The notes under the pieces: generated by a model
What the model saw: only the letters and a program-made list of their open reading frames with translations
What the model was told of the DNA's origin: nothing
Database searches by the model: none
Shown here: positions 7,473-51,197 of the stretch, one piece after another
Numbering within the stretch: the first letter of the stretch is position 1
Layout of the letters: every line of letters starts with the position of its first letter
Made by a program: the position numbers and the translations under genes
Source: a virus
Strand: one strand, 5' to 3'
DNA length: 64,000 nt
Virus record (IMG/VR): IMGVR_UViG_3300006076_000003
Location: 22,602 to 86,601 of that record

Positions 7473-7488
7473 AAGGCAGATCTTAGAG

Positions 7489-7998: not shown

Positions 7999-8028
7999 AA
8001 TGTTCTCCTTAAATTAATTTATTATGAG

Positions 8029-8148: not shown

Positions 8149-8153
8149 TGTTT

Positions 8154-8495: not shown

Positions 8496-8516
8496 TGTAT
8501 TCTCCTTTAAATAAAT

Positions 8517-8544
8517 TAGCAGTTTTACTACTTGCTTAGGTAAA
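8517..8544 (-). ncRNA. Pseudoknot motif A, copy 4
   Basis: Minus strand UUAC-CUAAGCAA-GUAG-UAAAAC-UGCU. Confidence 0.65.
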
Positions 8545-8545
8545 A

Positions 8546-11576: not shown

Positions 11577-11583
11577 TAATCCT

Positions 11584-11600
11584 AAAAATTTTTGTATAAT
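11584..11600 (+). promoter_or_regulatory. Host sigma70-type late promoter -10
   Basis: aaaaatttttgTATAAT in intergenic gap; similar intergenic TATAAT at about 22495, 27786 and 35153. Confidence 0.55.
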
Positions 11601-11632
11601 AGCTCTAAACTAATATGTTGGAGTTATGATTA

Positions 11633-14377: not shown

Positions 14378-14385
14378 GAGATAAT

Positions 14386-17523: not shown

Positions 17524-17536
17524 AGGGGTATATGCT

Positions 17537-29947: not shown

Positions 29948-32900
29948 ATGAGTTTTGAACTAACGAAATCAAATATAAAAGTAGCAAAAAATAATGATGT
30001 AGATGTAATAACAAAAGATTACGTTCTATCAAACGCAACAATTTATTCTAATACATTAAAAGGTGGTATACCAGAATGGTTAGACACTGCAATAACTGCT
30101 GCGATATCAAATGGTACTGTTTCCCTAAGTGAAGCGATAGCAGATTTAAATTCAACTATTGATGCTTTGCAAACAGGTATATCACAATCAATACAATCAA
30201 TACAAAGTGATGTAGAATCAACAAATACTCTAATAACTACTGTAAAAAGTGAACTTAATGACAATATAGCAGCTGTTGCTGATATTGCTAATTCAAAAGT
30301 AACTGAGTCAGAAGCAAGATCTATATCTGAACAAATTGTCGGTTCAAAGTTTAGAGTAGGTAATGAAGATGAAGCAGAAGCTTGGGCTACAAGTCTTACT
30401 GAGTCTTATGCGTCACAAAATCTTGCATATGCACAAACAGTTGATAATATTATAGCAGTACAAAATGACCAACAAATAACACTTAGTGATGTTAATAAAG
30501 TTATTGCAGGGCAATTCCAATTCTGGGGTGGTGAAGATCCAATTACAGTTGGTTGTATAATTTACACAACAGATGATAATGTTCCTGATTGGGGGAATAA
30601 CACAACAACAGATTCATATCTTGATAATGGTGATGGTACTACAAGCCCTTACCAATTGTGGCAATATTTAGGTAAAGGACTTGGTTCTTCTACAAACAAT
30701 TGGCGAAAAATTGATAACATAAATGGTACCTTAGGTGTTGCAAAAAGTCTAGCAACAGATGGCGATGGTAATATCACAGGTTGGGCATATGCTTCTGGTA
30801 GTGGTGGTGAGTCTGAATTTGCTATTCACGCAGACCACTTCTATATTAGTAATTCAGATAACTCAGCAAGACCATTTAATATTGACTCAGATGGTATTCA
30901 TTTTGTAGGTAAAGTTACATTTAGTTCTATAACGGATAGACAAGAATATATTGTAGATCCTATAAATGATTTACAAGATAACAAAGCTACTGTATTTAGG
31001 ACATCTACTGAACCTACCGTTAATGATAATAATTTATCAGTTAATGATTTATGGATACCACCTTCTGATGTTGATGATTATAAAGCTAATGAGATATACC
31101 AATGTACTGATATAGATCCTGTTACATTTGTAAATCTTACAACTATAAATGAAGCTATTAGTAATGTTCAAGTTAATTTACAAAATCAAGTTGATTCGAA
31201 AATAGACATGTACTACCAAGATAATCCACCATATGACAATGCTTCTGAAGAAAATGCTTTAAATGATAGTAGAGTTGGAGATTATTGGTATTGTGGAGCT
31301 ACTTCTGATGATTACACAAAAGGTATAGTTTATAAGTACACAAAAAATAATTCTGACTATACTTGGGAAGTATCACAAGATGTGTCACATGAAGTATTTG
31401 ATATTGCTGATAGTAAAAGAACAATATATAGTAATGCTACTGATGATACACCTAACGGAGAAGTTAATGACTTATGGATACCTCTATCTGGGGATACCGT
31501 TACATTAGATGGTGTTGATATTATTAAGACAAAAGTATATATTTTTTCACCTGACTCTAAATGGATAGTCGCTACTGACTATACTAATAATGACTATGCT
31601 GAAAGTATAGTTAATGGTAATACTCAAATAGATTTAGCACAACATTTAGACTCTTTAGGCTGGGAACAGCGAATTAGTGACTCTGAAGATGCTTTGAGTA
31701 CCCATACAGCAGAAATTGCTGGTTTAGAAGAAACAAATGATGGAGTTGTAAATTCATTTTACCAAACAACTGCTCCTGATTCTGATGTATCAAGCTATGG
31801 GGATTGGTGGGTTGATACTGATGCATCGCCATTAAAAGCTTATAGATATGAAGATTCAGATGGTAAAAATGTTAATACCTTAGACTGGCGTGATAATTCA
31901 GATAGTATTTTAGGCAGAGCATACATCTCGGCTCAAAATGCTCAAGCTACTGCTGATGGTAAGATTGTCTCATTCTTTCAAAATGATGTACCTACTGCTG
32001 AAGGTGTAGGTGATTTATGGGTTGATACTGATGACAATAATAAAACTTATAGAGCTGCTTCAATAGGAGCTAATGAAATAAAAAGTGGTGAATGGGAACC
32101 TATAACTGATAGTAGTGCTTTAAATAACTTTATTTCTACAACTTATACTAATGACCAAATTAATATTGGTAATCAATTAGATAATAAAGCTGAAGCTTAT
32201 TTTCAAAATACTGAACCTTATGCTGCTTCTGATGGACAACCTTCACAAGATGCGGATACTTGGTATAACTCTGATAATGGTGAGTTAAAAGTATTTAGAT
32301 ATGATGCTGATAATCCTGAATGGGTTTTAATTACTGACCCTAAAGCTATTAGTGCTTATCAAGCGGCTCAAAATGCTCAAGCTACTGCTGATGGTAAGAT
32401 TGTCTCTTATACTGGTTCATCAGAACCTACAAATTACTCAGTTGGGGATGTATGGTTACAAGGTTCAAGTGGGGATATATATGTTTGTCAAACAGCTCAT
32501 GATACTTTTAGAAGCTCAGATTGGTTAATTGCTTCAAAGTATACTGACGATACAACTGCCTTAAATGCACAAAACTTAGCAAATGTTGCTTTACAGCAGT
32601 TACCAACTATCGCTATTAAAGCAAATGCTAATGCAAATAATTTAGATGCAGCTAATGGAGAATGTGCTATCTTTGGGTACAACTCAAATGGGGAGATATC
32701 CCATAGTAATATAAGTATATTATTTAATGGTCAAAGAGTAAATTTAGAAGTACAACCTAATAGAGATTTATTTGTAAATACTATTGACACATTTGGTTAT
32801 ATACTCTATATAAGAGATAAGGATGTACTAAAGTACAAAGATGGTGATAACTTAGCTGATGGGGATAGAAATTTTTGGGTTGTGACATATGATAAAGTAA

Positions 32901-35149
32901 GGGGTTGGTTATATGACAATAATTCATATTTAGCACCTTGTAGTGACTACGTTGATTTCTCTACTCTCACAGAGGGTTATGACTATATGTTAGTAGGTGA
33001 CATCAGAACTGGTTATTTAGCAAATCAAGCTCAAGTTGATGCCTATATTGATGGTGGTGGCGATGATTCAGTAAAAGTTGGTGATTATGTTAATGACTGG
33101 ACAACTGAAGCTAATGTATACCAAGAAGCAATAACTTTTGATAGTGTTGAAAATCATTTTGATAAGATGGAAATATTAAAAAACGGTGGTGTTGATTCAC
33201 TATTTAGTAGAGCTTGGAAAGACCCGTTTAATGAAGATAGTTGGACTGTAACGGACAATAATGAAGGAACTATTGCTATTCAAAAAGGATACAATGTATC
33301 AGTAAGCAGTGATGACCAAGACTCACATGACTCTTGGGCAATAAGCACTAAAAAATTTAAGTACGACCCAAATAGCTTATATAAAATAACATTTAAAGGT
33401 TATACAGAAACAGATGGCACACATAACTTTTATGCTGGTGTTATGGGGTTTGCTGCAGATGGAACAACTAAAGTAAATGTTGCTGGTTCTGATGCAAGTG
33501 ATAATCAACACTATATAGCAGCACATAGTGAAGATTTAGTAGATGGTCAACACTTTGAATTTACTGGATACTTTAAAGGTATTGGTACAAGTGATGATTA
33601 CCATTATGATACTGATATATTATATCCATCACCACTAAATTCTGCTGTTGTGTACTTTTCACCAATGGTTGTTGCTGGATATGATGCTGATGTTAATCAA
33701 ACAACATACCTAACAGATGTTCAGGTTGAGATAGTCTCAACAGCTACTATTCAACATGCTTATTCCAATTCACCAAAATTAGATATTAAAATAAACCATG
33801 AAAATTATACTGATAGCGGTACTGGAGAAGCGTATATATATGGTATAAGTGAAGTTGGTAGACCAATTGAAACTGGTTCTGGTGGATATGTTTTATATAG
33901 TAATGAGAAATTGTATATATCAAACCAAAAAATGTATACCAATCTAAAGAATAAAAATGGTTATATTTGTTTTAGAAGAAGTGGGTTTCCTAATGTTGCT
34001 GATAAAACAGTACAAATCGTATTTGCTTACCCTAAATCAAATACTGTATCACAGTGGTACTATGATGCTAATTCAGATACACCAGTATTATTTGATTTTA
34101 CAGATGCAGATTTCTCTGATATTTATGTAATAGGGGAAATGGTTACTTGTGAAACATCAAATGATTGTATTAAGAGTGCCTCTATATGGTTACAAGCTAA
34201 AAAAATAGAAGAAATACATAGGATTGCTAAACAATTTAGTACTGGAACAACAGAAATTAATGGTGATGTAATTACAACAGGAACTATAAAATCAGATAAA
34301 ATGGCAGTAGGACAATCAATTGTATCTGCTAATTTCAACCCACATTCTTCTGATGATGTATCAGACACACCAACAGAAGCAGACTATTATGATGCAATAG
34401 ATGATAGTGTAACACCTGCTGGTTTTAGATTAAAAGCTGGAGCAACTGGAACTTACTCAGACCCGAATATCTATGGTGGTGCTATTAGGGGTAGTAAAAT
34501 ATATTCATCATTATTTATGAATATTAATACCTATGATAAGCCATACTTAAAAAATTTTAGTGGGCATATTCATCCAGGAGCATTTGATGGAGATGCTATA
34601 ACAAGTCTTACTATAAATACGTATATTGTCGATGCTGATCAAAATGGAGATATTGAAAATGGTATTTCACCAACTTACTCATCTAATACAGGTAAGTGTG
34701 AAATTATAACTAATGCCCCATGGTACTATTCCTATAATATAGTTAAAGGACGAACAGCAATTGACAATGATCAAAATTGTGAAGTAAAAATACAATTATT
34801 TAGATATGAAAACATAGATAATACTGGTGATATAAATGTTGTAGCAACATATACATATAAACATAATATAGGTGATGACACGATTGACCAATACTTTACA
34901 ATGACAAATTTAAATATTGTTTTTAGAATTATTATATACTATGATTCTGGAGCGGATTCAGTTATGTATTACCTATATTATATAAATTCTGGAATGATGT
35001 ATGGTATGGCTGGAAACGACTCAAAATATCAAGGTGCATACCAAATATTTATATCAGCTCATTTTACTGATAGTGATGGTAATGACTTAGATGATGGTGA
35101 TACGAATAATTTTATTTCAAACAGATATACAATTGTAACAAATCCGTAA
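29948..35149 (+). CDS. Large tail fibre / tip protein with DUF1983-like domain and repeated GD.W modules
   Basis: Coiled coil, GNITGW...SEFAIHADHF..PF, repeated P....GDLW.D modules, TEINGDVITTGTI. Confidence 0.85.
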   Translation: MSFELTKSNIKVAKNNDVDVITKDYVLSNATIYSNTLKGGIPEWLDTAITAAISNGTVSLSEAIADLNSTIDALQTGISQSIQSIQSDVESTNTLITTVKSELNDNIAAVADIANSKVTESEARSISEQIVGSKFRVGNEDEAEAWATSLTESYASQNLAYAQTVDNIIAVQNDQQITLSDVNKVIAGQFQFWGGEDPITVGCIIYTTDDNVPDWGNNTTTDSYLDNGDGTTSPYQLWQYLGKGLGSSTNNWRKIDNINGTLGVAKSLATDGDGNITGWAYASGSGGESEFAIHADHFYISNSDNSARPFNIDSDGIHFVGKVTFSSITDRQEYIVDPINDLQDNKATVFRTSTEPTVNDNNLSVNDLWIPPSDVDDYKANEIYQCTDIDPVTFVNLTTINEAISNVQVNLQNQVDSKIDMYYQDNPPYDNASEENALNDSRVGDYWYCGATSDDYTKGIVYKYTKNNSDYTWEVSQDVSHEVFDIADSKRTIYSNATDDTPNGEVNDLWIPLSGDTVTLDGVDIIKTKVYIFSPDSKWIVATDYTNNDYAESIVNGNTQIDLAQHLDSLGWEQRISDSEDALSTHTAEIAGLEETNDGVVNSFYQTTAPDSDVSSYGDWWVDTDASPLKAYRYEDSDGKNVNTLDWRDNSDSILGRAYISAQNAQATADGKIVSFFQNDVPTAEGVGDLWVDTDDNNKTYRAASIGANEIKSGEWEPITDSSALNNFISTTYTNDQINIGNQLDNKAEAYFQNTEPYAASDGQPSQDADTWYNSDNGELKVFRYDADNPEWVLITDPKAISAYQAAQNAQATADGKIVSYTGSSEPTNYSVGDVWLQGSSGDIYVCQTAHDTFRSSDWLIASKYTDDTTALNAQNLANVALQQLPTIAIKANANANNLDAANGECAIFGYNSNGEISHSNISILFNGQRVNLEVQPNRDLFVNTIDTFGYILYIRDKDVLKYKDGDNLADGDRNFWVVTYDKVRGWLYDNNSYLAPCSDYVDFSTLTEGYDYMLVGDIRTGYLANQAQVDAYIDGGGDDSVKVGDYVNDWTTEANVYQEAITFDSVENHFDKMEILKNGGVDSLFSRAWKDPFNEDSWTVTDNNEGTIAIQKGYNVSVSSDDQDSHDSWAISTKKFKYDPNSLYKITFKGYTETDGTHNFYAGVMGFAADGTTKVNVAGSDASDNQHYIAAHSEDLVDGQHFEFTGYFKGIGTSDDYHYDTDILYPSPLNSAVVYFSPMVVAGYDADVNQTTYLTDVQVEIVSTATIQHAYSNSPKLDIKINHENYTDSGTGEAYIYGISEVGRPIETGSGGYVLYSNEKLYISNQKMYTNLKNKNGYICFRRSGFPNVADKTVQIVFAYPKSNTVSQWYYDANSDTPVLFDFTDADFSDIYVIGEMVTCETSNDCIKSASIWLQAKKIEEIHRIAKQFSTGTTEINGDVITTGTIKSDKMAVGQSIVSANFNPHSSDDVSDTPTEADYYDAIDDSVTPAGFRLKAGATGTYSDPNIYGGAIRGSKIYSSLFMNINTYDKPYLKNFSGHIHPGAFDGDAITSLTINTYIVDADQNGDIENGISPTYSSNTGKCEIITNAPWYYSYNIVKGRTAIDNDQNCEVKIQLFRYENIDNTGDINVVATYTYKHNIGDDTIDQYFTMTNLNIVFRIIIYYDSGADSVMYYLYYINSGMMYGMAGNDSKYQGAYQIFISAHFTDSDGNDLDDGDTNNFISNRYTIVTNP
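31929..32406 (+). repeat. 43-bp identical direct repeat (31929-31971 and 32364-32406)
   Basis: cggctcaaaatgctcaagctactgctgatggtaagattgtctc twice, 435 bp apart, same frame. Confidence 0.9.
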
Positions 35150-38206: not shown

Positions 38207-38755
38207 ATGGAAAAAAATAGTGCGTTTAACTTAACTTTAGATAACTCATTAAATCAAACACCATATGTTTCAAATGAAGACGTCGTACTAAAGAAATTAT
38301 TTGACGATAGGAATAAAGATTTTAATGAAAGTGCTTTTAGTAGATATCTTAGAATGGGTAAAATTCATACTATTAATGGTCTTAGAGATACACAGGATTG
38401 GGCATCACAATATTTTAAAGACTTAGGACACGATGTTGGTGAAACAGCAGGAACTATTAAAGATGGTGTAGTTGATAATGTTATTAACCCAATAGGTAGT
38501 GCATTTGGAGGTGATTTTACTAATAGTAAAAAAGGTTGGTTTGATGAAATGACACCAGAAGAAAAAAATAAATTTAGATTGGGACTTGGTGGATTTGGTT
38601 TAGGATTAATGGGTGCAATTGACAAACATAATCAAACAAAAGCATTAACGGATTATTATGGTCATATGAATGGAAATTTAGATGCTCAAACAGCTAAAGT
38701 AAATGACCATATCGCACATAACAAAGAAATAAGATCTGCATTTGCAAGGATATAA
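38207..38755 (+). CDS. Ejection protein (N4 gp52-like)
   Basis: LGLGGFGLGLMG glycine-rich hydrophobic motif; no Cys. Confidence 0.6.
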   Translation: MEKNSAFNLTLDNSLNQTPYVSNEDVVLKKLFDDRNKDFNESAFSRYLRMGKIHTINGLRDTQDWASQYFKDLGHDVGETAGTIKDGVVDNVINPIGSAFGGDFTNSKKGWFDEMTPEEKNKFRLGLGGFGLGLMGAIDKHNQTKALTDYYGHMNGNLDAQTAKVNDHIAHNKEIRSAFARI

Positions 38756-38758: not shown

Positions 38759-40456
38759 ATGAATAACTCTAACCCATTTTATAATGCACTATCACAATAT
38801 GATAGTTACCTTAAAGAAAAAGGTTTAAGAGAAGCTTTTAACTCAACACCAAAACAAACTAATCCATTTGATTATGATGGAATTGGTGCAGAAGTAAATG
38901 ATGCTTATGAAAAATTAGCTCAACAAGATGCTAAATATAATACTTATGGACCAAGTGATAAAGTACTAAAACTAAACAAAGTTATACAAAGATTTTATAA
39001 TGTAAATAAAGACAGATATTCTAATGAAGATTTTGATAATTATAGAAAACAAACAATTAGTAATTTAGTACAAAAAGGTTATGGTATTGATGATGCTAAT
39101 AAAATATGGAGCACAATAGCAGAACAGAAATTTGGTGATAAGTACACAGATAAACAAGCAGCATTAGATAAACAAAATGCAATTAATGTCTTTAAAGCAA
39201 AATATCCAGGTAATTTGTTAACAAAACTTGTTGGCTCAGGTAGTTCTACTAAAGGTACAAAAGATTATAAAGTTGTCACTAAAGATAATAACTTTGATGC
39301 AGCCTCACTTAAAGAATGGTTATTAGATCCTAAAACACAACATTTAACAGGAGCTACATCTCATGTACCATTTAGTGATGTAGGATTAGCACATTATATC
39401 AGTAATCATTATGGTGGTATACCTGTGGATAATGCTAATTTTATTACTTCTGCTATTCAAGGCCTAAACGAAAAATTGCATGAGAAAGGATTACCTCCTG
39501 TAAATACCCAAACAGCAAAAAATTTATTACTCTCTGCAACTAATACTGGTAAAAAAGGTTATGGAGAATTTAATGGAATAATGTCAAATACATTCAAAGA
39601 GGAAATTAAAACACCTGAAGACCTCTCATTAAGACTTTTAAAAATAATGAATGCTGAAGGATTAAGCAATAATACCAGTGAAAGGAGTCGTAAAAATGCT
39701 GCATCACAAGCTGCAGCAGTTAATAGTTTATTACATAACACACAATATAAAAAAGATTATTCTACCTTAGAAAAAAGATTAAAAGATATTGACAGTAAAA
39801 TAGGAAGTAGGCGTAAAGTTGGTTTTGTTGGTTTAAATGATATCAACAAAATATATGATGGTACTTTTGATAAATTAGATACACCTGAAACACAACCAAA
39901 AGAACAAACTACAAATAAATCAGAAAATACAGCAATATCTGAGATCATTGCAAAAATGGAAAAAGATAAAAAAGATAGAGCAAATGACCCTATGCCTAAA
40001 GATTTAACAGGACAAACAATTTATAATCTATTAGCTCAACTACATAAAAAGAATGGTGAAGATAATATCCCAATTAGATTACCTAAATTTAAAACACAAG
40101 AACAAAAAGTTAACTATGCTAATTTCTTAAAACAACAATTAGGTATACCATCTCAGCCAGAGATTAATTTTAAGACACCTGCAGATGGACAACCAATTCC
40201 AGTTATTAAAGATGAATCAACATCATCTATAAATAATAGTAATAAGCATTTATTTAAAAGTCAAGTTAACAATACAGTTAAAAAATTAATTAATAACTTA
40301 CCACCAGAAGAAAAAGCTAAAGTTAAAGCAATTGCTGAAAATCAAGGAACTTCTATGGTAAGAGCATATAGAATATATGTTTCTACATTAAAAAATGAAT
40401 CAAAAATACCAGCAAGTGATGTTGGAGATCTTGTTGTACTAGGAGGTAAAGGATGA
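38759..40456 (+). CDS. Ejection protein (N4 gp51-like position)
   Basis: 565 aa, no Cys, precedes vRNAP. Confidence 0.6.
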   Translation: MNNSNPFYNALSQYDSYLKEKGLREAFNSTPKQTNPFDYDGIGAEVNDAYEKLAQQDAKYNTYGPSDKVLKLNKVIQRFYNVNKDRYSNEDFDNYRKQTISNLVQKGYGIDDANKIWSTIAEQKFGDKYTDKQAALDKQNAINVFKAKYPGNLLTKLVGSGSSTKGTKDYKVVTKDNNFDAASLKEWLLDPKTQHLTGATSHVPFSDVGLAHYISNHYGGIPVDNANFITSAIQGLNEKLHEKGLPPVNTQTAKNLLLSATNTGKKGYGEFNGIMSNTFKEEIKTPEDLSLRLLKIMNAEGLSNNTSERSRKNAASQAAAVNSLLHNTQYKKDYSTLEKRLKDIDSKIGSRRKVGFVGLNDINKIYDGTFDKLDTPETQPKEQTTNKSENTAISEIIAKMEKDKKDRANDPMPKDLTGQTIYNLLAQLHKKNGEDNIPIRLPKFKTQEQKVNYANFLKQQLGIPSQPEINFKTPADGQPIPVIKDESTSSINNSNKHLFKSQVNNTVKKLINNLPPEEKAKVKAIAENQGTSMVRAYRIYVSTLKNESKIPASDVGDLVVLGGKG

Positions 40457-43400
40457 ATACACTAGATGATTTAACACACGAATATCTAAGTTCCCTTAGT
40501 CCTGAAAGTTCTTCATTACCTGAAGAACCAACAGGTTATGCTACTCCTCAATTAAACAAACCTGCAGTTGTTAATACACCATCAGGATACACTGATGCTG
40601 AAATTAACGCAATGATTGCTGATAGAAATAAAGACATAGCACCAGAATCAGATTACATGGATGAGATACAAGCATCTTTATATAGAGGTGCACAATTAAT
40701 AGGTAGGGGTGGAGCTGATGCATTAAGTTGGGGTGCAGATAAATTAGGTATACCACAAGCTTCTAAATTCTTAGACTCTATTGACTGGAAGTCAGATGAT
40801 GAGATAAATGATGCAGTTGGGTATGATCCATCAGCAGCTGAATTAGCCTACCAAAAACAAAAAGATGCTTATAAAGCTTTTACAAAAAATGTTGATTTAA
40901 GTTCTGGTTGGGATTTAGTTACAAGTACAGCAAATACTTTGCCACATATGTTAGCTGACAATGCTGATATTATAGCAACATTAGCACCTAATCCTTTAGG
41001 ACCTGAAGCATATATTGCTGGTAAATTTGCATCTGGAGCTGAAAAGGCAGCACAAGCTGCAGAAGCTGCTAAATTAGCAAATAGCTCTAAAGCACTTGAC
41101 CGTATTAAAGCAGTTGGTCAAGCTCCTAAAACACAAGTTGGAGTTACAAGTAAATTAGTGCAACCTGAAGCACAAACACTAAGTAAATTTGCTAAATCTC
41201 CATTATCACATGATGAAATTGCTATGGCAAGACAAGCAATCTTAAAAGATGCACAACAATTTAAAAAAGCTAAAAATGCTGAGATTGAATCAAATTTAAA
41301 ACTTGCTGATAGACTAAGAACAGTAAACAACTATGTACCTATAAATAAACGTTCAATATTATATGGCTCTGGAATGGCAGCAGAAAATAATAGAAAATTT
41401 GCTGAAAACAATGATGGTGAAGGTAGAGATTTATTAACAAACATAGCTGATGCAGTAGCAGAAACAGCATTATTAGGTGCAACATTACGTGCTGGAAAAG
41501 ATGCAGTAGGACTTGGTAGTGGAGCTAAAGAAGCTGTTAAGAATATATTTACAGACACTGCAAAATCCGTAGAACATGCTATGGCAAATGGTGCAAAAGA
41601 TGAGATAAAATCATCAGTAGCAAATAGTGCAGCACAAGTTGCTAAGCTATTTGGTGAAGGTGCAGCAGTAAACTATACTCAAGAGTGGTTACAAATATTA
41701 GGACAACAACTAAACTCTAAAGATAAGGGTGACTTAATGTCAGTCATATCTGATAAAAAGAATCAAGATAAAGCAAATATTGCAGCAATATCTGGTGCCG
41801 CATTAGCTGGAGCTCCTAAAGTAGCATATCATGCAGCAAAAGTACCTTTAAACATTGGTACAAGTGCTATATCTGCTGGTGTTAAAAAAGTTAAAGACAG
41901 AGTAGCAGAAAAAGCTAAAGCAGCTAGCCTTGCTGTTCTACCTGCTGAAGAGCGTGAAAGACTACATGCTCAACATGTAGCACGTAAAAAAGCACAAGAA
42001 AGTGAAATTAAGTTACATGAAAAAGCTTTAGAAGATATTGCTAAAGCTGAAACTTTTGAAGATTTACAAAATATAAAAGATGCAGCAGTACAGGAAAAAG
42101 TAAATGATATTATTGATGATCACTTTGGTTCTAAAACACTACATAAGCAAATCAATGAAGCAAAAACTGTTGATGACTTAAAGGGTATATCTGATGTTAT
42201 TGATACTAAGGTAAATCAAAAACTAAAAGAAAATTCTGAATACAGTTTGGATAAACTAAAGCAAGACTTGATTTATGAAAATAGACAAGATCACTTAACA
42301 AAAAACCAAAAAGGTAATGCTGATAGTATTAGAAATGCTACAACAGTTGATGAATTAAACAACATTGCTGGATTAAACAAACAACAAAAAGGTGCTGTAT
42401 TTGCTCAAGAGAAAAATATATTTAGACCTGATGCAGAAATAGATATTGGTGAAGGACAAACAGTACAAGGTAAAATAATTGATACAAGTCCAGATGGTAC
42501 TAAACATCAAGTTAAATATATTGATCCTCAAACTAAAGAAGCTAAAACTAAGACAGTTACAAATGATAAAGTAACACCATTATCAGCTGATAAAGTTGAT
42601 TTAACACATCATAATGAAAGACTTAATAAGTTAAAAAATTATTTGCTTAAAGTTGAGAAAGAAAGCAATCCAAGCATAACAGATAAGCTAAATAGTAATG
42701 TGGAAAGTATTAAAAATTATGCAATTGCACAACATAAAGGAGCTATTGCAACTAAAAAACTTTGGATCGAAAAGCAAAGAGCATCTGATTATCTTGGTGC
42801 AGCATTTGATAGTTCTAAACGAGGCTTTAAAGCTATGAGTGAAAAAATATCACCTGAGACAAGAGAAGCAATAGCAAATACTTTAGGAACAGCAAAACAA
42901 TTAACAAATGATACTATTAATACAATGGTTGATCTGGCTAAAGAACCTGAAAAGTCTGCAGTTAGAGGTATGTTTACTGACTTACTTAATGGTAGAATGA
43001 ATGAAAGACTTTATGACTTATCCGATAAACAACTTGATGAACTATCACCTAAATTAGCAGGTAATAAAAAAGCACAAGATATTGTTTATATGATTAAGAA
43101 AAACAGAAATAAAGCTAAAAAAGAATTTGGATTAGATACTGAAGAAGCATCTAAAGGAGGATTTTTAGGTAAATTAGATGCTATGACAAATTCACCTATT
43201 GCTTATAAACTGTATGGATTAATGTCAGCAGGTGTGGATAAAATTAAAGATACAGCAACACTTAATAAAGTAAAAGATACATTTGATAGCATTACAGAAG
43301 AAGATGTTAAAAATATGGATAAGGAAGAAAAACAAGTTTATGACACAGTAGCTAAAGATATTGAAATAGCAAAACAAAACTTACAGAATAAAAAAGATGA

Positions 43401-44016
43401 AGTTATAAATGCTAAAGAAAAAGATTTAAACACCAAAGCTGAAGACAGTAAAAAAGTAGTTACTGATTACTTTACTGAACATTTACCTGAAAACTCTGAA
43501 ATAGCAAAAGTACTTACAAATCCTGAAGAACATAAAGATTATAAACAAGCAGTTGAAAAAGATGTTAAACAATTAGTAGAAAACAATGATTTAAATAGTC
43601 TAAAAGAACTATATAGAGTTGCTCATGCTGTAAATTCACGAAACATGCTAAACGGTAGTATAGCTGACTTATCAAAAGAAATTGAAAATGCAATAGTACC
43701 AATAGATGAAGATGCTGAATTAAGTGATTATGCAATCATTAAACATAGTAAAGATGGTATAACAGATGAAACATATAACCAAGTAGCTGATTTAATAAAT
43801 ACAGCAAGTGAAGATGCAACACATGAACTAAGTAATGAGATGCTATCAAAATTTGCTAAACAAGCACAAGAACTCCACGATGAATCTGAAAAATATTCTG
43901 CTCTTAAAGCTAAATTAGATACAATTCAAATAACAGAACCAAAAGAGTTAGAAAAAGCTATGAAAGATATTGAAAAAATAGCTAAAGAATTAAACATTGA
44001 TATATGTAAAATATAA
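40453..44016 (+). CDS. Virion RNAP N-terminal part / large ejection protein
   Basis: Ala/Gly-rich, GEGAAVNYTQE..Q, ISGAALAG; single Cys at position -3. Confidence 0.7.
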   Translation: MNTLDDLTHEYLSSLSPESSSLPEEPTGYATPQLNKPAVVNTPSGYTDAEINAMIADRNKDIAPESDYMDEIQASLYRGAQLIGRGGADALSWGADKLGIPQASKFLDSIDWKSDDEINDAVGYDPSAAELAYQKQKDAYKAFTKNVDLSSGWDLVTSTANTLPHMLADNADIIATLAPNPLGPEAYIAGKFASGAEKAAQAAEAAKLANSSKALDRIKAVGQAPKTQVGVTSKLVQPEAQTLSKFAKSPLSHDEIAMARQAILKDAQQFKKAKNAEIESNLKLADRLRTVNNYVPINKRSILYGSGMAAENNRKFAENNDGEGRDLLTNIADAVAETALLGATLRAGKDAVGLGSGAKEAVKNIFTDTAKSVEHAMANGAKDEIKSSVANSAAQVAKLFGEGAAVNYTQEWLQILGQQLNSKDKGDLMSVISDKKNQDKANIAAISGAALAGAPKVAYHAAKVPLNIGTSAISAGVKKVKDRVAEKAKAASLAVLPAEERERLHAQHVARKKAQESEIKLHEKALEDIAKAETFEDLQNIKDAAVQEKVNDIIDDHFGSKTLHKQINEAKTVDDLKGISDVIDTKVNQKLKENSEYSLDKLKQDLIYENRQDHLTKNQKGNADSIRNATTVDELNNIAGLNKQQKGAVFAQEKNIFRPDAEIDIGEGQTVQGKIIDTSPDGTKHQVKYIDPQTKEAKTKTVTNDKVTPLSADKVDLTHHNERLNKLKNYLLKVEKESNPSITDKLNSNVESIKNYAIAQHKGAIATKKLWIEKQRASDYLGAAFDSSKRGFKAMSEKISPETREAIANTLGTAKQLTNDTINTMVDLAKEPEKSAVRGMFTDLLNGRMNERLYDLSDKQLDELSPKLAGNKKAQDIVYMIKKNRNKAKKEFGLDTEEASKGGFLGKLDAMTNSPIAYKLYGLMSAGVDKIKDTATLNKVKDTFDSITEEDVKNMDKEEKQVYDTVAKDIEIAKQNLQNKKDEVINAKEKDLNTKAEDSKKVVTDYFTEHLPENSEIAKVLTNPEEHKDYKQAVEKDVKQLVENNDLNSLKELYRVAHAVNSRNMLNGSIADLSKEIENAIVPIDEDAELSDYAIIKHSKDGITDETYNQVADLINTASEDATHELSNEMLSKFAKQAQELHDESEKYSALKAKLDTIQITEPKELEKAMKDIEKIAKELNIDICKI

Positions 44017-44030
44017 GGGAGATTATTTAA

Positions 44031-47000
44031 ATGAGTAAATGTATACCATTAGAAGACTTGGCAGGTCTACTTGAAAAAGTAGATGTGTCTAAATTCAGCA
44101 ATGATGGAAAACTTGCTAATAAAGACTTCAGATTTGAAACAAAAGATATACCATTTTCTGCAATACTTAACACATTACAAGATGGTAAAGGTGAATTTGG
44201 TGATACATCAATTATTGATAGAATGGGTAATTTAGGTTATAAACTAAATTGGGTGAGAGAAAGATTATCTAAGCCAGATGCCTTAAATACTATACCTGAA
44301 GAACTTAGAGAAACAGAAAATGAAAGAGGTTTACTAAGAACAATAGCATTAACTGAAGTGATTGATTCATCAAGAGGTGAAGCATTTAAAGTAAATAAAT
44401 ATAATGCTGATTTAAAAAAAGTAAGTGATAGCTATGGAAATGCTACTGAAATAAGAATGCCTTTTGCACGTGTAGCAGCAGTCATAGGTAGAAAAATAAT
44501 GCAAAGTAGAACAGGACTTGTATTTGGTGAAGGTGATGCAACTAAAGCATCAGCAGCTAAGATAGAACAAGCTTATCAAACAATTGGTGAAGCTGCATTA
44601 AAAGATTTAGAAAAAGCTGGTTTTATTAAATTACATGATAAAGCAAGTGTAATAAATGACTTTGCATTTACTAATGAAGATGGTATAACAAGAATTGCTG
44701 CACAAGACCCTAAAACACGCTATACAACAATGAAAGCTGTATCATTAAATGTTTCAAAAGATAGTAGATTTAGAAAACTCTATGGTGATGAATTATTTGA
44801 TAGTTATGTTAAAGATATAATGGATACCACAGGTGACGAAGATTTAAAGTCCTTCATAGATGAAGTAAATGAATTAGATGAAAATGATATTAAATCTTAC
44901 GAACTAAAAGAACAGTATAATAAATTAAGAAACTTTAATGCTTATATAGCAGGTGTTAATAGAGTAGCAATACCTACAACATTTGTAGATGTTAAAACTG
45001 AAGCACCAGATAGTATAGAAAATGACAGAGATGTTATGGAAAGAGCTACTGATGAGTATAAAGAAGGAGTTAAATCATTAAATGAGACAAAACAGCATGT
45101 AAAAAAACCAATACTTAACTTCCTTAAAGATTTAGCAGAAGTCTATAAATCTGAGAAAAAACCTTTAAAATCTTTAGTTAGATACTTAGTTGGTAACAAC
45201 ATTAGTACAAAAGATAAGCAGCAATTTGAGGAAGTGTTAAACAGCATATTTGGTTTATACAGCAAAGATATACATACATCTTACTCAAAAGCATCTATTG
45301 CTGGTAAAAACACATCAATCTTATCACCGCTTGAAGATATGTTAGGACATATTGATAGTATTACAGATGAAAAAGGTGAACCTAAATATTTCCACAATAC
45401 ATCACATATTGGAGCAAATGGACGTGAGTATTATGATTCAGCATACCTAAGTATTCAAGCTAATAAAATTGTAAGAGATATTATTAGTGTTGGAGATAAA
45501 GAAGATAAAACATTTAACATTCATAAAGATAAAGAAGCATATAATCAATTTATAACTTACCTAATGGATGCTTTACCAAGTAAATTAACAGAAGGTAAAG
45601 ATGAAACGGCAATCTTACAAATGTTAAAAGGTGAAGATAAATCAGATAAAACTTTTGAATACTTGTTAAGTAAAGTAGATACTTTAACAGCAGACAAAGC
45701 AGATATTGCTGATAGATTAATAGCATTAGGGGAAATAAATGCTAACCTAAAAGGTAAAGACCAAGTTAAAAATCCTTCATTTATGCATAATGCCTCTGTA
45801 CTATTGGCTGTAAAAGATTTAAGAAAAGCAGTAGAAGGTGATGGAACACTTACAACAGATTTTCTTGCTGACCCAGATGCAACAGCAAATGGTGCTACAC
45901 TTAAATTAGCAGAAGCTGCAAGAGATGCAAATAATGAAAAAGCAAGGGAAATATTAGGAGCCGTTGGAGTTATTGGAGATAATAAACAAGTAAGTGATGT
46001 TTACAATTATGTAAATAAATTTATTTTAGAGCCATCCATAACTAAAGCATTAGAGTCTAAGGACACTCCAGAAGAAAGCAAAAATGCACCAGATGGTGTC
46101 ATAACATTTAGTAAAAAAACAAGAGGATTTGATAAAGCTAATGCAACATTAATGCAAAAGATTATCAAATATGTATATGAAGATAATATGCGTGAATTTG
46201 CTAAACTACCAACTATGACATTAATCTATGGACAGGGGGAACATGCCTCAAAACTAACAATAGCAAAAGGCGTAGCTACTAAGATGGGTGTAATGTTTCA
46301 CGGCATTAAAAGTAAAAAAGAATTAACAGAAGCACATAAATTTGTGTTAGATTTATTAGGTGAAGATAAGGATAAATTAGATGCTATACACTTAACAGAA
46401 AAAGATGTAGCAACATTAACAAATAAATTCAAAGATAGTATAGCAGCAAATGTACAGCATTTAATGAAAGATGCTTTTTATAAAAAAGGTTCTGGAGCAT
46501 TAGCAGATTTTAAAGAGGTATCAACAGATTTATTTAATTTAGCACAAGAGCTGCATAAAAAAGGTAAGGACAATCCTAAATTTAATGAAAGAATTAAGGA
46601 ACAAAAAAACAAAGTTCTATTGTTAAAAACGCAGCTAAAAGAAGAAAAAGCTAAAGCAAAAAGAAATAGAAGACGAAAAAAATTAAAACTTGACAAAACT
46701 AATTTTGAAAAAGAAGATGTAAAAGGAATGTCAGAAAAGCTTGAGAAAGAAAGAAGCAAGTTACGAAATATGCTTTATATGAAAGAGCATTTAATGATGT
46801 TACCTCCTCACGTAAATGATGCAAAAGTATTACCGAGAAACCCATACATTGGCTTTAAGTTAGAAAAACAATTTAATGTCTATGACCCTAAAACAGGCAC
46901 TATCACAAATAAACCATTACCAACTCAAACAGTGTTTGATGTAAGTGCAACACATATGGTAGATAGTTACAATCAAGTAGCATCTGGCGGACATTATCTT

Positions 47001-50000
47001 AACTTATTTGATGCTAAATTCTTGAACCCAAAATATGCAGCACAAGCAGTTAAAGATTATTCAGAACAAATGAGCAATAACATAAATAACTTTAGTAAAA
47101 TTGAATCATTGCATAAAACATTAGAAGTATACAATGACATATTTTTTGATAAAGACAGCAAAGAACATAAACAATTTGCTAATCGTATTGCAGCAATTAA
47201 AAATAAATTTAATGGTAAATTAGAAGTAAATAAAGAAGCTGGAGTATTATTTGGTGAGAAAGTTATAGAAGATACAGTAGATCCTAATACTAAAAAAGCA
47301 ACATTGGATAATAATACTAAGAGTGAAGTGTCTATTACTACATTTAAATCTAAAAAATTAAGTGTAGAAAAGGCAAAAGAAAAAATTGATAATCTAAAAC
47401 AAGATATTAAAAATAACAATGTAGTTACGTACGATCTTGAAACTGATGGATTAATTAGCAAAGATGGAAAAACAATACCTAATGTAATACAAATAGGTTA
47501 TAAAGATGGAAACAAAGATATAAAAACAGTACATATAAAATTTCCTTCAAAAGAAGCATATAATAAATATGTTAATGGTATGGAATCTGAAAAAATTAGA
47601 AATAGTAAATTATTTAAAGAAGTTAGTAAAGGTTATAAAGAGTGGCAAGATAACGCAATATCTATCGATGAAGCATTAAAAATGTTTAATGATGTAGCTA
47701 AAAACAAAAAAACATTAACATTTAATGGTAATGGATTCGATAATGTCATTATGCAATCTTTATTTAATGAGCATAATTTAGACATAACACCATTTAAAGA
47801 TAGTAATACATATGATATAAGAGAAATAGATTTAGGACTTAATAATTATGATACTTTTAAAGGTACATTAGAAGATAAAGTAAATGAATATGACTTAAGT
47901 TCTAAAGAAAATCAAGAAAATTTACATAATGCAGATTTTGATGTAGATATGACTTATAAATTAGCAAATGCATTAATTGACGTAAAAGATTTAAATAGTG
48001 AATTAAATAAACTTGCTAAAGAAACTGATTCACCTATAATCAACACTTTTGTTACACTGCAAGGAAAAACAAAAACTAAGATGCGTAGTGGTGAGAATAG
48101 TAAATTTAGTAGTAAACAAAATACAATTTATATTGCAGGTCCTTTAGATAAAACTGTTGTAGAACATGAGATATTACATAGCTTTACAACACTATGGATT
48201 AAAGATAACAAAAATGATTCATCTTATAAATACTTGCAAAAAGCACTGCCTAAACTAAGAGAATTGAACATTGCTGAATTAAAAGATATATTAGCTAATG
48301 ATGATGAAACAGCAATAGCTGAGTTAATAAGTACAATGGGTAGTAATATGGAACTGGCTAAAAAAGTCTATAAAACTATTGATAGCAGCAAAACAATATT
48401 ACCAGCTACAAGACTAAGAAATGTTATCAACAAAGCAATAAAAGCAATTATAAAATGGGTTGGTAGTGAAAAAGCTTTAGAAAGATTAGAAAAAGAAGGC
48501 TTAAATACAGAAGATTTAGCAAATGCTATTAACACAGCAATTGGAAAGAGTATCAATGATGTACAAAATAGAGCAACAAACTTTAATAAAGAGGTTAAAG
48601 CAGTAGATAAAACATATAATTTTATGGGTGGTGTTGGAAAGATACATGAAGCAATAGAGGATAAAGTTGAAAAAATTAATGCTTTATCTGTGAGAGTTAT
48701 AACAGAGCCAGTAGAGCACAAAGCTGAAGTAATAACTAAAAATGTTGATAGAATATTATCAGAAAAGTATCCTACATATTTTAGAGCTAAAGAATATGCT
48801 ATTGGAGTATATAACAGTTCTGAAGCACTGCAACAACTTATGCAGTATATTGCTACACCAGAAAAGTTAATTAGCAGAAAAAATGAGGTATTAACATTAT
48901 CGAATAAACTTAACAAAGAAACAACTGATAGAACAAATGAAGCATTAAATAATATACACCACTTAACAAGAGATTTTAGTAAAAATGAAAAACAAGTACT
49001 TGGCAACATAACAACAAAAATACCATTACATTATATTTATGCATTTGCACCAGATTTAAAAGACTTTAGTGGAAAAATAAAAGAATTAGAAAGTAACCTT
49101 AACAAAGATGGTTTAAGAAATGTAGATAATATTGTAAGTTTATGGGTGGATGGGGTAGTAAAAGATACTAATTTATACTCACTAGAAGATACTTATGGAA
49201 CAAGTGACTTAGCTAACAATATTAAATTATTAGCAGCACTTAAAGCTTTAGAAAAAGTTGATAAAAACTTTGAGTTATCAACAAAAATAATGGATAAACA
49301 TTTAGACTTATATAGAACAATTAAAGACCATTCAATGGCTTTATATCTTACACACAAAGACATTTTAGCTAATACACCAAGTAAAATAGCAATGAAAGAT
49401 GTACAAGTTGTACCACACTACAACAAACTTATACATAAAAAAGTATTTAGCTACAAAGATAGAGATAAGATGCAATATAGTGATAAAAATGGTTGGAATA
49501 TAATACAACAACCTACAAAAGACGGCAAAATTGGTATAGCATATAAAGAGATTATTGATACACAGTCAGCTGAAGGTACTGGTGTAGAACTACAACTACC
49601 TGAAACAGATATTACTGTACCTGAGAAGTATATAAACAATGGATATGTTGATGTACATAATAACAACATTGTACATACAGCAGATGGTTATAAATTGATA
49701 TTAACAGCAGAACAAGAAAAGCAAATTGGCATATTGGAAACACCAGCAGAAAGTCTTGTTAGATCTACCAATAACATGATACATCTTAAAGAAACAGAAG
49801 TTATAAGAGATAGATTAGCAGAAAAAGCATTTACTGCTGAGTTAACTAATGACAGTACTAAAGAAATAGCAAATGAGATACAATCTAAAGTAATTGATCA
49901 TCCTTGGTTCTTAAAAGTACCAGATGACATTAACTATGCTGACTTAGCAAATAGCACAGATCCTAACATGCGATTAATACATGCACATTATAAACCAATA

Positions 50001-51197
50001 CAACGTAAAATGTCTAAAGTTGGTGGCTTTGATAAAAAAGTTACTTGGGTTAGAAAAGATGTAGCACATTGGCTTGTAGGATTTAATAAAGGACCTTTAT
50101 TTAAAAGCAAGTTAGGACAACAAATATCAAGAATAACAAAAAATATAGTGTCATTAGCAAAAATTAATATGGCTATTGCTAACCCTATGAAGCTAGTAAA
50201 AGATGCAGCATCATCTGTTAATCAGCTTATTATAATGGGAGTGCCTGCAACATATATAGCAAAAACATCTAAAGACTTTTTTAATGATTTAAAAGAATTT
50301 AAAAGAGTACAAACAAAAATAGCAGCATTGCAACTAAAACATTATGCCGACCCTAACAATGAAGCAATAACTAAAAATATAGCAAAATTAAATGAGCAAT
50401 TAAAAGATAATAGCGTAGCTAAAGCATCAGAACATGGCTTTGTTAACTCACTTAGCTCAGATGTAGTAAGTCATAATGCACAAACAAGATATGGTTTAAC
50501 AGCAGATGTAGATAATGTACTAAAAAAAGTATTTACAAAAGATGGAGAAACAGCAAATAAGTTAGGTGAACAAATATTAAAACTTAGCAAATTTGGTGGA
50601 TGGAATGGTATAACAGCATTAGATAGAGTAGCAGATTATGTTGAAGTAATACCTGGAATGGAAGGCAAATTAGAAGGTGTTCATACAGTAATGCAAGAAC
50701 TTAACAATGTTAGAACAGAAGAAGATGTTGTTAGTATGATGCGTCAATGGACCCTATCGCCTAACTCTGAATTTGTAAAAGCAGGTATTGAAGTAAATGA
50801 CTTTATAGATGCATCATCTAAATATACATACTTTAAGTACTTAACTGAAGAAAAAGGTTATACAGAAGAAGAAGCAGTTACTGAAGTAATGAAAGCTGTA
50901 CCAGATTATAAAGAAGTTATGCCATCATCAATGAAATTAGCATCTGACTATGGTATATTGATGTTCCCTTCTTACTGGACAAGAATACAACGTGCTATTT
51001 ATATGATGGGTAGATATAGACCAGCATCTTTAATTGCTGAAATAACAGCTGCAGATATATTTGATTTATCACATTTATCAGGATTAACAATCTTAGATAG
51101 CAATATTTATGATAAAACATTAGATATGGGTGGTGCAATACATACACCTCTACAAGCAGCTAAATCAGGATTTATCTACCCTACTCATTTGATCTGA
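44031..51197 (+). CDS. Virion-associated RNA polymerase with DEDDh exonuclease and HExxH domains
   Basis: NGREYY, motif A DPDATANG, motif B REFAKLPTMTLIYGQG, motif C LFDA; YDLET/FNGNGFD/HNADFD; HEILH. Confidence 0.9.
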   Translation: MSKCIPLEDLAGLLEKVDVSKFSNDGKLANKDFRFETKDIPFSAILNTLQDGKGEFGDTSIIDRMGNLGYKLNWVRERLSKPDALNTIPEELRETENERGLLRTIALTEVIDSSRGEAFKVNKYNADLKKVSDSYGNATEIRMPFARVAAVIGRKIMQSRTGLVFGEGDATKASAAKIEQAYQTIGEAALKDLEKAGFIKLHDKASVINDFAFTNEDGITRIAAQDPKTRYTTMKAVSLNVSKDSRFRKLYGDELFDSYVKDIMDTTGDEDLKSFIDEVNELDENDIKSYELKEQYNKLRNFNAYIAGVNRVAIPTTFVDVKTEAPDSIENDRDVMERATDEYKEGVKSLNETKQHVKKPILNFLKDLAEVYKSEKKPLKSLVRYLVGNNISTKDKQQFEEVLNSIFGLYSKDIHTSYSKASIAGKNTSILSPLEDMLGHIDSITDEKGEPKYFHNTSHIGANGREYYDSAYLSIQANKIVRDIISVGDKEDKTFNIHKDKEAYNQFITYLMDALPSKLTEGKDETAILQMLKGEDKSDKTFEYLLSKVDTLTADKADIADRLIALGEINANLKGKDQVKNPSFMHNASVLLAVKDLRKAVEGDGTLTTDFLADPDATANGATLKLAEAARDANNEKAREILGAVGVIGDNKQVSDVYNYVNKFILEPSITKALESKDTPEESKNAPDGVITFSKKTRGFDKANATLMQKIIKYVYEDNMREFAKLPTMTLIYGQGEHASKLTIAKGVATKMGVMFHGIKSKKELTEAHKFVLDLLGEDKDKLDAIHLTEKDVATLTNKFKDSIAANVQHLMKDAFYKKGSGALADFKEVSTDLFNLAQELHKKGKDNPKFNERIKEQKNKVLLLKTQLKEEKAKAKRNRRRKKLKLDKTNFEKEDVKGMSEKLEKERSKLRNMLYMKEHLMMLPPHVNDAKVLPRNPYIGFKLEKQFNVYDPKTGTITNKPLPTQTVFDVSATHMVDSYNQVASGGHYLNLFDAKFLNPKYAAQAVKDYSEQMSNNINNFSKIESLHKTLEVYNDIFFDKDSKEHKQFANRIAAIKNKFNGKLEVNKEAGVLFGEKVIEDTVDPNTKKATLDNNTKSEVSITTFKSKKLSVEKAKEKIDNLKQDIKNNNVVTYDLETDGLISKDGKTIPNVIQIGYKDGNKDIKTVHIKFPSKEAYNKYVNGMESEKIRNSKLFKEVSKGYKEWQDNAISIDEALKMFNDVAKNKKTLTFNGNGFDNVIMQSLFNEHNLDITPFKDSNTYDIREIDLGLNNYDTFKGTLEDKVNEYDLSSKENQENLHNADFDVDMTYKLANALIDVKDLNSELNKLAKETDSPIINTFVTLQGKTKTKMRSGENSKFSSKQNTIYIAGPLDKTVVEHEILHSFTTLWIKDNKNDSSYKYLQKALPKLRELNIAELKDILANDDETAIAELISTMGSNMELAKKVYKTIDSSKTILPATRLRNVINKAIKAIIKWVGSEKALERLEKEGLNTEDLANAINTAIGKSINDVQNRATNFNKEVKAVDKTYNFMGGVGKIHEAIEDKVEKINALSVRVITEPVEHKAEVITKNVDRILSEKYPTYFRAKEYAIGVYNSSEALQQLMQYIATPEKLISRKNEVLTLSNKLNKETTDRTNEALNNIHHLTRDFSKNEKQVLGNITTKIPLHYIYAFAPDLKDFSGKIKELESNLNKDGLRNVDNIVSLWVDGVVKDTNLYSLEDTYGTSDLANNIKLLAALKALEKVDKNFELSTKIMDKHLDLYRTIKDHSMALYLTHKDILANTPSKIAMKDVQVVPHYNKLIHKKVFSYKDRDKMQYSDKNGWNIIQQPTKDGKIGIAYKEIIDTQSAEGTGVELQLPETDITVPEKYINNGYVDVHNNNIVHTADGYKLILTAEQEKQIGILETPAESLVRSTNNMIHLKETEVIRDRLAEKAFTAELTNDSTKEIANEIQSKVIDHPWFLKVPDDINYADLANSTDPNMRLIHAHYKPIQRKMSKVGGFDKKVTWVRKDVAHWLVGFNKGPLFKSKLGQQISRITKNIVSLAKINMAIANPMKLVKDAASSVNQLIIMGVPATYIAKTSKDFFNDLKEFKRVQTKIAALQLKHYADPNNEAITKNIAKLNEQLKDNSVAKASEHGFVNSLSSDVVSHNAQTRYGLTADVDNVLKKVFTKDGETANKLGEQILKLSKFGGWNGITALDRVADYVEVIPGMEGKLEGVHTVMQELNNVRTEEDVVSMMRQWTLSPNSEFVKAGIEVNDFIDASSKYTYFKYLTEEKGYTEEEAVTEVMKAVPDYKEVMPSSMKLASDYGILMFPSYWTRIQRAIYMMGRYRPASLIAEITAADIFDLSHLSGLTILDSNIYDKTLDMGGAIHTPLQAAKSGFIYPTHLI

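Follow-up and report, generated by a model that had tools for sequence, protein, structure and literature searches.

Analysis of a 64,000-nt stretch of DNA (hereafter the window; positions 22,602 to 86,601 of IMG/VR record IMGVR_UViG_3300006076_000003), which belongs to an 86.6-kb N4-like podophage, revealed that the giant N4-type virion RNA polymerase (vRNAP) of this phage is encoded as two proteins, whose only cysteines sit at the two chain ends that face each other. Comparison with related loci showed that 16 of 16 such gene breaks in 15 distinct loci have a Cys on both facing termini, so that the two pieces are probably tied by a disulfide bond into one thread for injection, though no experiment shows this bond in any split vRNAP. 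The features of the window are summarized in Table 1.

Table 1. Features of the split vRNAP region, with positions counted from the first nucleotide of the window
Position	Strand	Feature	Cys content or sequence detail
38207..38755	+	182-aa protein, probably a small N4 gp52-like ejection protein	no Cys
38759..40456	+	565-aa protein at the position of N4 gp51 (periplasmic-tunnel ejection protein)	no Cys
40453..44016	+	ORF C, 1187 aa, positional equivalent of the vRNAP N-terminal domain plus linker	one Cys (residue 1185); ends ...NIDICKI*; stop TAA at 44014-44016
44005..44007	+	Cys1185 codon, third residue from the C-terminus of ORF C	TGT
44017..44030	+	14-nt spacer with ribosome-binding site	GGGAG at 44017-44021, nine nt before the ATG at 44031
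44031..51197		ORF D, 2388 aa, polymerase plus C-terminal module	one Cys (residue 4); begins MSKCIP
44031..47213	+	Polymerase module of ORF D (residues 1-1061), T7/N4-type single-subunit RNA polymerase	
44040..44042	+	Cys4 codon of ORF D	TGT
48030..51197	+	C-terminal domain of ORF D (about residues 1334-2388), homologous to the N4 gp50 C-terminal domain	

The initial annotation, which had noted by eye a single Cys at each of the abutting termini and none in the two upstream proteins, was exact in this respect. The other 45 non-overlapping ORFs of at least 100 aa in the window hold 88 Cys in 14,436 aa (0.61%), which predicts about 26 Cys in the four proteins, while only 2 are seen (Poisson P about 1.4e-9). 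Placing one Cys at random in the last 6 of 1187 residues and one in the first 9 of 2388 residues has a probability of about 1.9e-5. The background given in that annotation also holds, since N4 gp50 has 3500 aa and no Cys, and gp51 and gp52 have none either.

Direct searches of the four proteins against Pfam and PHROGs, and by phmmer and hmmsearch against PDB sequences, gave nothing useful, so that homology had to be shown by profile comparison. Using hhalign, the C-terminal domain of ORF D was matched to N4 gp50 residues 2104-3500 (Prob 96.5%, E 8.6e-10, 288 columns), and BLASTP analysis revealed similarity to the C-terminus of the phCDa vRNAP (E 3.5e-4). The polymerase module, delimited by a profile match (1-955 to residues 1-1061), was colinear with N4 mini-vRNAP (N4 residues 998-2103; Prob 78%, E 1.7e-5, 361 columns), aligning motif A (DPDATANG) and motif B (REFAKLPTMTLIYGQG), and revealed invariant residues D616, R721, K725, Y733, and D994, in agreement with a T7-like single-subunit RNA polymerase module with motifs A, B, and C. 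While ORF D itself had no Pfam hit, its homologs P0154 and P0011 hit PF00940 at 28.3 and 21.2 bits, respectively, against a cut-off of 22. An AlphaFold2 model of the polymerase module was poor (mean pLDDT 48), and Foldseek against PDB found no match at E <= 0.001; the weak top rows, namely mitochondrial, N4, and T7 RNA polymerases at E 0.15–0.3, were not counted as evidence. In contrast, ORF C showed no significant match to N4 residues 1-1000 (Prob 1.1%, E 0.047), and only its position, its size, and its lack of other Cys agree with the N-terminal domain. The family of the 182-aa protein matched N4 gp52 (Prob 80%, E 1.5e-5, 55 columns), while the family of the 565-aa protein revealed no similarity to gp51 (Prob 0.6%), so that its assignment rests on position and size only. 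Gene order, i.e., small protein, medium protein, and vRNAP, follows that of N4 and phCDa.

In the profile alignment, columns 311-706 of the ORF D family fall on residues 318-706 of N4 mini-vRNAP, so that residue 1 of ORF D corresponds to about N4 residue 1000. N4 vRNAP consists of three folded units joined by linkers at residues 907-1006 and 2102-2123, the former being a roughly 100-residue low-complexity linker (PMC13434306). Thus, the suggestion of the initial annotation that the break lies at the boundary of the N-terminal domain and the polymerase is supported, though its wording that the gene "was split" is unproven, because the phylogenetic tree described below cannot tell splitting from fusion.

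For comparison, we analyzed related loci with their gene context (designated L002 to L024). A break between the N-terminal domain and the polymerase with its C-terminal domain was found in eight distinct loci (the window, L002, L004, L005, L007, L014, and Alteromonas phages PT11-V19 and R22Y), and a second type of break, between the polymerase and the C-terminal domain, in six loci (AD45-P1, L013, L016, L017, L018, and L019), while L015 is organized in three parts and has 4 Cys at its 4 facing ends. Here, L006 (a duplicate of L004) and L012 (again the AD45-P1 genome) are not additional loci, and L003 and L021 are end-cut fragments. Seven unsplit vRNAPs, namely those of N4, phCDa, L020, L022, L023, and L024 and fragment L021, have no Cys. 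The two natural break sites fall at the two linkers of N4 vRNAP. ORF C is homologous to the upstream partners in L002 (32% identity), L004, L005, and L007, and in an alignment of seven sequences C1185 is one of 13 invariant columns, while the last 150 or so columns are otherwise variable and gappy. Likewise, C4 of ORF D is invariant in three alignments. Word-based protein searches gave few hits, i.e., four relatives of ORF D, none for ORF C, and none new of the C-terminal-domain-only kind. Searches with tblastn against phages resulted in no match for ORF C and, with two polymerase-only proteins as queries, in no cultured phage with a three-part split.

A library-wide profile search resulted in 209 hits, of which 150 representatives were classified by architecture, using our own thresholds of at least 500 residues before the module for a fused N-terminal domain and at least 800 after it for a fused C-terminal domain. 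All 105 of 105 proteins that begin at the polymerase module have a Cys in their first 9 residues, while 0 of 33 with a fused N-terminal domain do. Of the proteins with a fused N-terminal domain that end within about 700 residues (estimated) after the module, 22 of 23 have a Cys in their last 9 residues. Furthermore, 18 of 23 polymerase-only proteins have a Cys at both ends, and 10 of 10 unsplit proteins have none in 28,856 aa. The five polymerase-only representatives lacking a C-terminal Cys (P0064, P0065, P0070, P0075, and P0115) all sit on contigs of 4.5–11.2 kb and nest among fused relatives, and one is labelled "partial" by NCBI, so that truncation is likely but unproven. Only 7 internal Cys occur in the ~268,000 residues of the 138 rows whose N-terminal state could be assigned (four architecture classes plus the 11 N-terminal fragments). 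A few proteins carry an extra internal Cys, namely P0042, P0057, P0070, P0078, P0104, P0116, and the C-terminal piece of L019.

On a tree of 128 of the 150 rows, from which 22 fragments with incomplete modules had been dropped, the state of the C-terminal junction changes at least 11 times, and break and terminal Cys go together in 9 of 9 independent pairs (p 0.004). These data contradict the view that the pattern is a by-product without protein-level function, arising from nucleotide constraints of coupled gene junctions, from shared descent alone, or, for the window, from an assembly error. Though the genes are tightly coupled, with gaps and overlaps from -8 to +26 nt across the loci, and many of the proteins are related by descent, junction geometries differ between loci, and the Cys persist at 22–30% identity while the flanking residues vary. 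In L015, the polymerase gene and the C-terminal-domain gene lie 7 kb apart, yet both keep their Cys. Moreover, the split recurs in more than 70 clusters at 50% identity, the two ORFs of the window lie in different frames with a ribosome-binding site between them, which also rules out in-frame read-through, and the split of phage AD45 was confirmed by PCR, resequencing, and gels (PMC3821669). We therefore consider this explanation very unlikely.

Strict pairing at the junctions shows only that both Cys are needed together, not which chemistry they use, so that a contact other than a disulfide, e.g., a jointly bound metal ion or a transient docking or assembly signal for co-packaging, was considered as well. 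Such a contact could act earlier than a disulfide, since particles assemble in a reducing cytoplasm. However, two thiols alone are a poor metal site, and no His, Cys, Asp, or Glu is conserved next to either Cys. In the one solved case with the same signature the two Cys form a disulfide: in cyanopodophage A4 (Anabaena phage A-4L), gp27 (1717 aa) has its only Cys at residue 1715 and gp26 (1114 aa), encoded by the next gene, has its only Cys at residue 5, and cryo-EM shows these two in a disulfide in the virion (PMC12002296). No sequence relationship of gp27 and gp26 to the vRNAP pieces was detected (hhalign Prob 0.2% and 0.1%), nor was a polymerase module, and as far as we found, the bond is treated there as one stabilizing contact and not as a rule linked to gene breaks. 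A contact of another chemistry thus seems unlikely. Also unlikely is that each Cys bonds to something other than its neighbor, e.g., to a second copy of the same piece or to the portal or another virion protein. N4 packs 4 +/- 1 copies per virion (PMC13434306), so that pairing of like with like is sterically conceivable, and the portal of the window has 3 Cys. Yet a Cys appears on one side of a break only when one appears on the other (16 of 16 junctions), and a partner outside the vRNAP would not explain why unsplit proteins need no Cys. A split intein was rejected, since only 0–5 residues follow the C-terminal Cys and only 2–6 precede the N-terminal Cys, leaving no room for the intein fragments that would be expected at these positions.

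Altogether, the most likely explanation, which we hold with reasonable though not full confidence, is that the ejected proteins are kept free of cysteine except for one Cys at each facing chain end, and that these two Cys form an inter-chain disulfide inside the mature particle, standing in for the missing peptide bond of the flexible linker that joins these domains in phage N4. Because the Cys lie so close to the chain ends, the linked product is almost unbranched and could leave through the narrow tail channel as one "beads-on-a-string" thread, N-terminal module first; N4 vRNAP is proposed to thread through a tail tube of about 35 A as beads on a string (PMC13434306). That the bond exists in this family, that its purpose is threading and ordered ejection, and that reduction in the cytoplasm later separates the modules, as the initial annotation had suggested, are inferences. 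Prediction of a complex of ORF D residues 1-420 with ORF C residues 1068-1187 gave no verdict (score 0.01) and counts neither for nor against binding. Against a disulfide speaks that particles assemble in a reducing cytoplasm, and no thioredoxin or glutaredoxin family match was found in the 86.6-kb record, while a search for Erv1 was uninformative, as its control gave no match anywhere. In addition, the only sequencing run containing this DNA is a hydrothermal-vent metagenome, a habitat that may be poorly oxidizing.

With respect to known systems, N4 gp50 and other Schitoviridae vRNAPs, e.g., of Pseudomonas phages DEV (gp71) and phCDa (gp07), share the plan of N-terminal module (here by position and size only), T7-like polymerase, and large C-terminal domain, but are one chain of about 3400–3500 aa with no Cys at all (PMC11445570), while here the two pieces sum up to 3575 aa. 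The closest cultured relatives, Alteromonas phages vB_AmeP_PT11-V19 and vB_AmeP-R22Y, whose host is a marine gammaproteobacterium, revealed about 26% identity to the 2388-aa protein, the same split, and the same Cys pair (1000 aa with C997 and 2082 aa with C6; 1008 aa with C1004 and 2083 aa with C6, respectively). The R22Y paper calls the 2083-aa protein the vRNAP, and we found no mention of the split or the Cys in it (PMC11705849). In Alteromonas phages AltAD45-P1 to P4, the vRNAP is also made as two polypeptides (PMC3821669), each with one Cys at the facing ends by our count (2495 aa with C2493 and 1409 aa with C4), though the break is at the other linker. The authors saw two separate bands on gels, for which we found no conditions given, and read the Cys as a sign that the protein is not injected, without proposing a disulfide. 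Our literature searches found no paper that states the rule or proposes disulfide-joined split vRNAPs.

A wider reading, which is possible but rather less likely than not, is that terminal-cysteine clasps are a general, repeatedly evolved device of podophage ejection machinery, by which giant ejected proteins encoded in pieces are oxidized end to end in the particle into one pseudo-linear polymer that threads through the tail in a fixed order, before the reducing cytoplasm of the host cuts the clasps. In split-vRNAP phages, this would act as a redox switch that frees the polymerase from its membrane-anchoring N-terminal module and, where the second break exists, also from its autoinhibitory C-terminal domain.

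How a protein of about 380 kDa leaves a phage head through a channel of 30–45 A is an open question in the N4 field (PMC13434306, PMC13492108). Natural breaks at the two inter-domain linkers, each flanked by a Cys pair so close to the chain ends that the linked product stays almost unbranched, argue that chain continuity and near-linearity are under selection, which is what a threading, beads-on-a-string model predicts. If the inferred bond exists, our analysis also corrects the earlier reading that Cys in the AD45 protein means "not injected" and refines the accepted rule that ejection proteins lack Cys: they lack it except where a peptide bond has been replaced. If the bond is cut in the cytoplasm, it would be a redox-triggered release of an injected enzyme.

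A script count of the residues revealed exactly one Cys in the 1187-aa protein (C1185, in the C-terminal sequence NIDICKI) and one in the 2388-aa protein (C4, in the N-terminal sequence MSKCIP), while none was found in the 182-aa and 565-aa ORFs just upstream. The two large ORFs are in different frames and are separated by fourteen nucleotides, which contain GGGAG nine nt before the ATG. The other 45 non-overlapping ORFs of the window hold 0.61% Cys, so that about 26 Cys would be predicted in these four proteins, whereas 2 are seen (P about 1e-9). The chance that two lone Cys fall in those terminal positions is about 2e-5. Two further proteins of the window, the major head protein (403 aa) and a 437-aa protein, also lack Cys, while a 1733-aa protein harbors 11. 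Thus, the statement of the initial annotation that the only Cys of the split virion RNA polymerase (vRNAP) sit at the abutting termini is confirmed.

Features of the window and of the compared loci
Sequence	Coordinates	Strand	Feature
Window	12657-13970		437-aa protein
Window	26498-27709		Major head protein (403 aa)
Window	29948-35149		1733-aa protein
Window	40453..44016		ORF of the 1187-aa protein
Window	44031..51197		ORF of the 2388-aa protein
Window	about 47004-47015		Polymerase motif C (residues 992-995 of the 2388-aa protein)
Window	47421-47980		Insert after motif C (residues about 1130-1320 of the 2388-aa protein)
L015 (three-part locus)	13414-19734		Three unrelated genes (996, 554 and 413 aa) between the polymerase gene and the gene for its C-terminal domain
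L027 (Anabaena phage A-4L)	16766-25269	minus	gp27 and gp26
L011 (AD45-P1)	6624-18348		vRNAP region

The IMG/VR virus record that includes the window has a size of 86,601 bp, is judged 97% complete, and carries a terminase, an SU10-type portal, and a major head protein. None of the four proteins revealed direct hits to Pfam, PHROGs, or PDB sequences. By tblastn, the 2388-aa protein is about 26% identical to the "RNA polymerase" of Alteromonas phages PT11-V19 and R22Y, which are described as Schitoviridae relatives with a 2083-aa vRNAP (PMC11705849). A profile of its C-terminal 1055 residues matches residues 2104-3500 of N4 gp50 (hhalign Prob 96.5%, E 8.6e-10), and a profile of its first 1060 or so residues matches N4 mini-vRNAP (residues 998-2103; Prob 78%, E 1.7e-5). 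The latter match is colinear (columns 311-706 on 318-706) and aligns motifs A and B, so that the protein starts at about N4 residue 1000, and homologues reach Pfam PF00940. Motif C reads LFD or LYD in the window and in the homologous locus L002, where the other relatives and T7-type enzymes have HD, although the Asp (D994) is invariant. In addition, the window's protein carries an insert after motif C with a DnaQ-like ExoI motif (VVTYDLETDGL), for which the Pfam family Rv2179c-like 3'-5' exoribonuclease scored only below the cut-off (E 0.002, residues 1205-1270). This insert is absent from the 46%-identical L002 homologue and from the other relatives in the same alignment. The 182-aa family resembles N4 gp52 (Prob 80%), while the 565-aa and 1187-aa families show no detectable similarity to gp51 or to the N4 N-terminal domain, respectively. 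Their assignment rests on order, size, and lack of Cys, which match N4 and phage phCDa.

Since the initial annotation had proposed that the conservation of the terminal Cys pair in homologous split vRNAPs be tested, we examined every locus that could be retrieved (some designated L002 to L024). Seven of these displayed the same split between the N-terminal module and the polymerase plus C-terminal domain, with exactly one Cys in each protein, namely L002 (1147 aa, C1145, followed by 2224 aa, C3), L004 (1019 aa, C1017; 2103 aa, C3), L005 (1062 aa, C1060; 2010 aa, C5), L007 (987 aa, C985; 2068 aa, C4), L014 (920 aa, C918; 2035 aa, C4), PT11-V19 (1000 aa, C997; 2082 aa, C6), and R22Y (1008 aa, C1004; 2083 aa, C6). 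A second kind of split, between the N-terminal module plus polymerase and the C-terminal domain, showed the same signature at the other boundary in AD45-P1 (2495 aa, C2493; 1409 aa, C4), L013 (2802 aa, with Cys as the last residue; 1394 aa, C4), L016 (2197 aa, C2196; 960 aa, C3), L017 (2331 aa, C2331; 968 aa, C5), L018 (2169 aa, C2168; 999 aa, C3), and L019 (2122 aa, C2121; 1703 aa, C3, plus one extra Cys at 273). Locus L015 is split in three, consisting of a 910-aa protein with C908, a 998-aa protein with C3 and C995, and a C-terminal domain with C9. Here, three unrelated Cys-containing genes sit between the last two pieces, and the pieces of one vRNAP therefore need not be adjacent genes. 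In contrast, the unsplit vRNAPs of N4, phCDa, L020, L022, L023, and L024 and the fragment L021 have no Cys. In total, 16 of 16 junctions carry a Cys on both facing ends.

To extend this comparison, an HMM of the polymerase module was run against 1.84 billion representatives and resulted in 209 hits at E <= 1e-3, of which the best 150 were examined. Among these, 105 of 105 proteins that begin at the module have a Cys in their first 9 residues, while 0 of 33 proteins with a fused N-terminal domain do. Of the proteins with a fused N-terminal domain that end within about 700 residues (estimated) after the module, 22 of 23 have a Cys in their last 9 residues, the exception ending inside the module. 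A Cys at both ends was found in 18 of 23 polymerase-only proteins. The other five are likely, though not proven, to be truncated, since one is labelled "partial" by NCBI, all are on contigs of 4.5-11.2 kb, and all nest among fused relatives. Moreover, 10 of 10 unsplit proteins have 0 Cys in 28,856 aa, and only 7 internal Cys were counted in the ~268,000 residues of the 138 rows whose N-terminal state could be assigned (four architecture classes plus the 11 N-terminal fragments). The N-terminal Cys sits at position 3 to 7, and zero to five residues follow the C-terminal Cys.

On a FastTree phylogeny of 128 polymerase cores, the C-terminal junction changes state at least 11 times and the N-terminal junction at least twice. 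In independent pairs, break and terminal Cys go the same way 9 times and the opposite way 0 times (p 0.004); with the six doubtful rows kept, the counts are 9 the same way, 0 opposite, and 5 with no difference. As the tree is unrooted, splitting cannot be told from fusion. Altogether, the interpretation of the initial annotation that the two pieces may be rejoined by an inter-chain disulfide is supported by every computational test available, though the chemistry itself remains untested.

It was already known that vRNAP and its companion ejection proteins avoid Cys (PMC11445570), that AD45 phages have a two-piece vRNAP, and that one disulfide links two ejection proteins of cyanophage A4. However, in the literature searched, which did not include supplements and subscription journals, we found no paper stating the rule that every break in a vRNAP is flanked by a Cys pair and that unbroken chains have none, or reading this as disulfide stitching. 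The authors of the AD45 study saw two bands on gels of unstated conditions and read the Cys as meaning "not injected" (PMC3821669). While that paper states that ORF127 has two Cys, we count one Cys in each of the two ORFs, and the GenBank record marks the whole vRNAP region of AD45-P1 as a "potential frameshift" misc_feature without CDS.

Published work on N4 describes three folded units joined by a roughly 100-residue low-complexity linker (907-1006) and a 23-residue linker (2102-2123), and proposes beads-on-a-string passage through a tail tube about 35 A wide, an autoinhibitory C-terminal domain, and 4 +/- 1 copies per particle (PMC13434306; PMC13492108). The two natural break sites coincide with these two linkers, and the C-terminal stretch of the 1187-aa family is variable and gappy up to the invariant Cys. 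The simplest reading, which remains an inference as no data show the bond in a split vRNAP, when it forms, or that it is reduced after injection, is that a disulfide replaces the peptide bond in the linker. In this regard, the phage record, whose only known source is a hydrothermal-vent metagenome, revealed no thioredoxin or glutaredoxin family match. On that reading, the Cys are held at the extreme ends so that the joined chain remains nearly unbranched and can thread. Direct precedent exists in cyanophage A-4L, in which gp27 (1717 aa) has its only Cys at 1715 and the product of the next gene, gp26 (1114 aa), has its only Cys at 5, while gp29 has none and gp28 has two, close together near its C-terminus (1036 and 1039). 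Cryo-EM shows exactly these residues of gp27 and gp26 disulfide-bonded in the virion (PMC12002296). Since these proteins are not detectably related to the vRNAP, the device seems to have arisen more than once.
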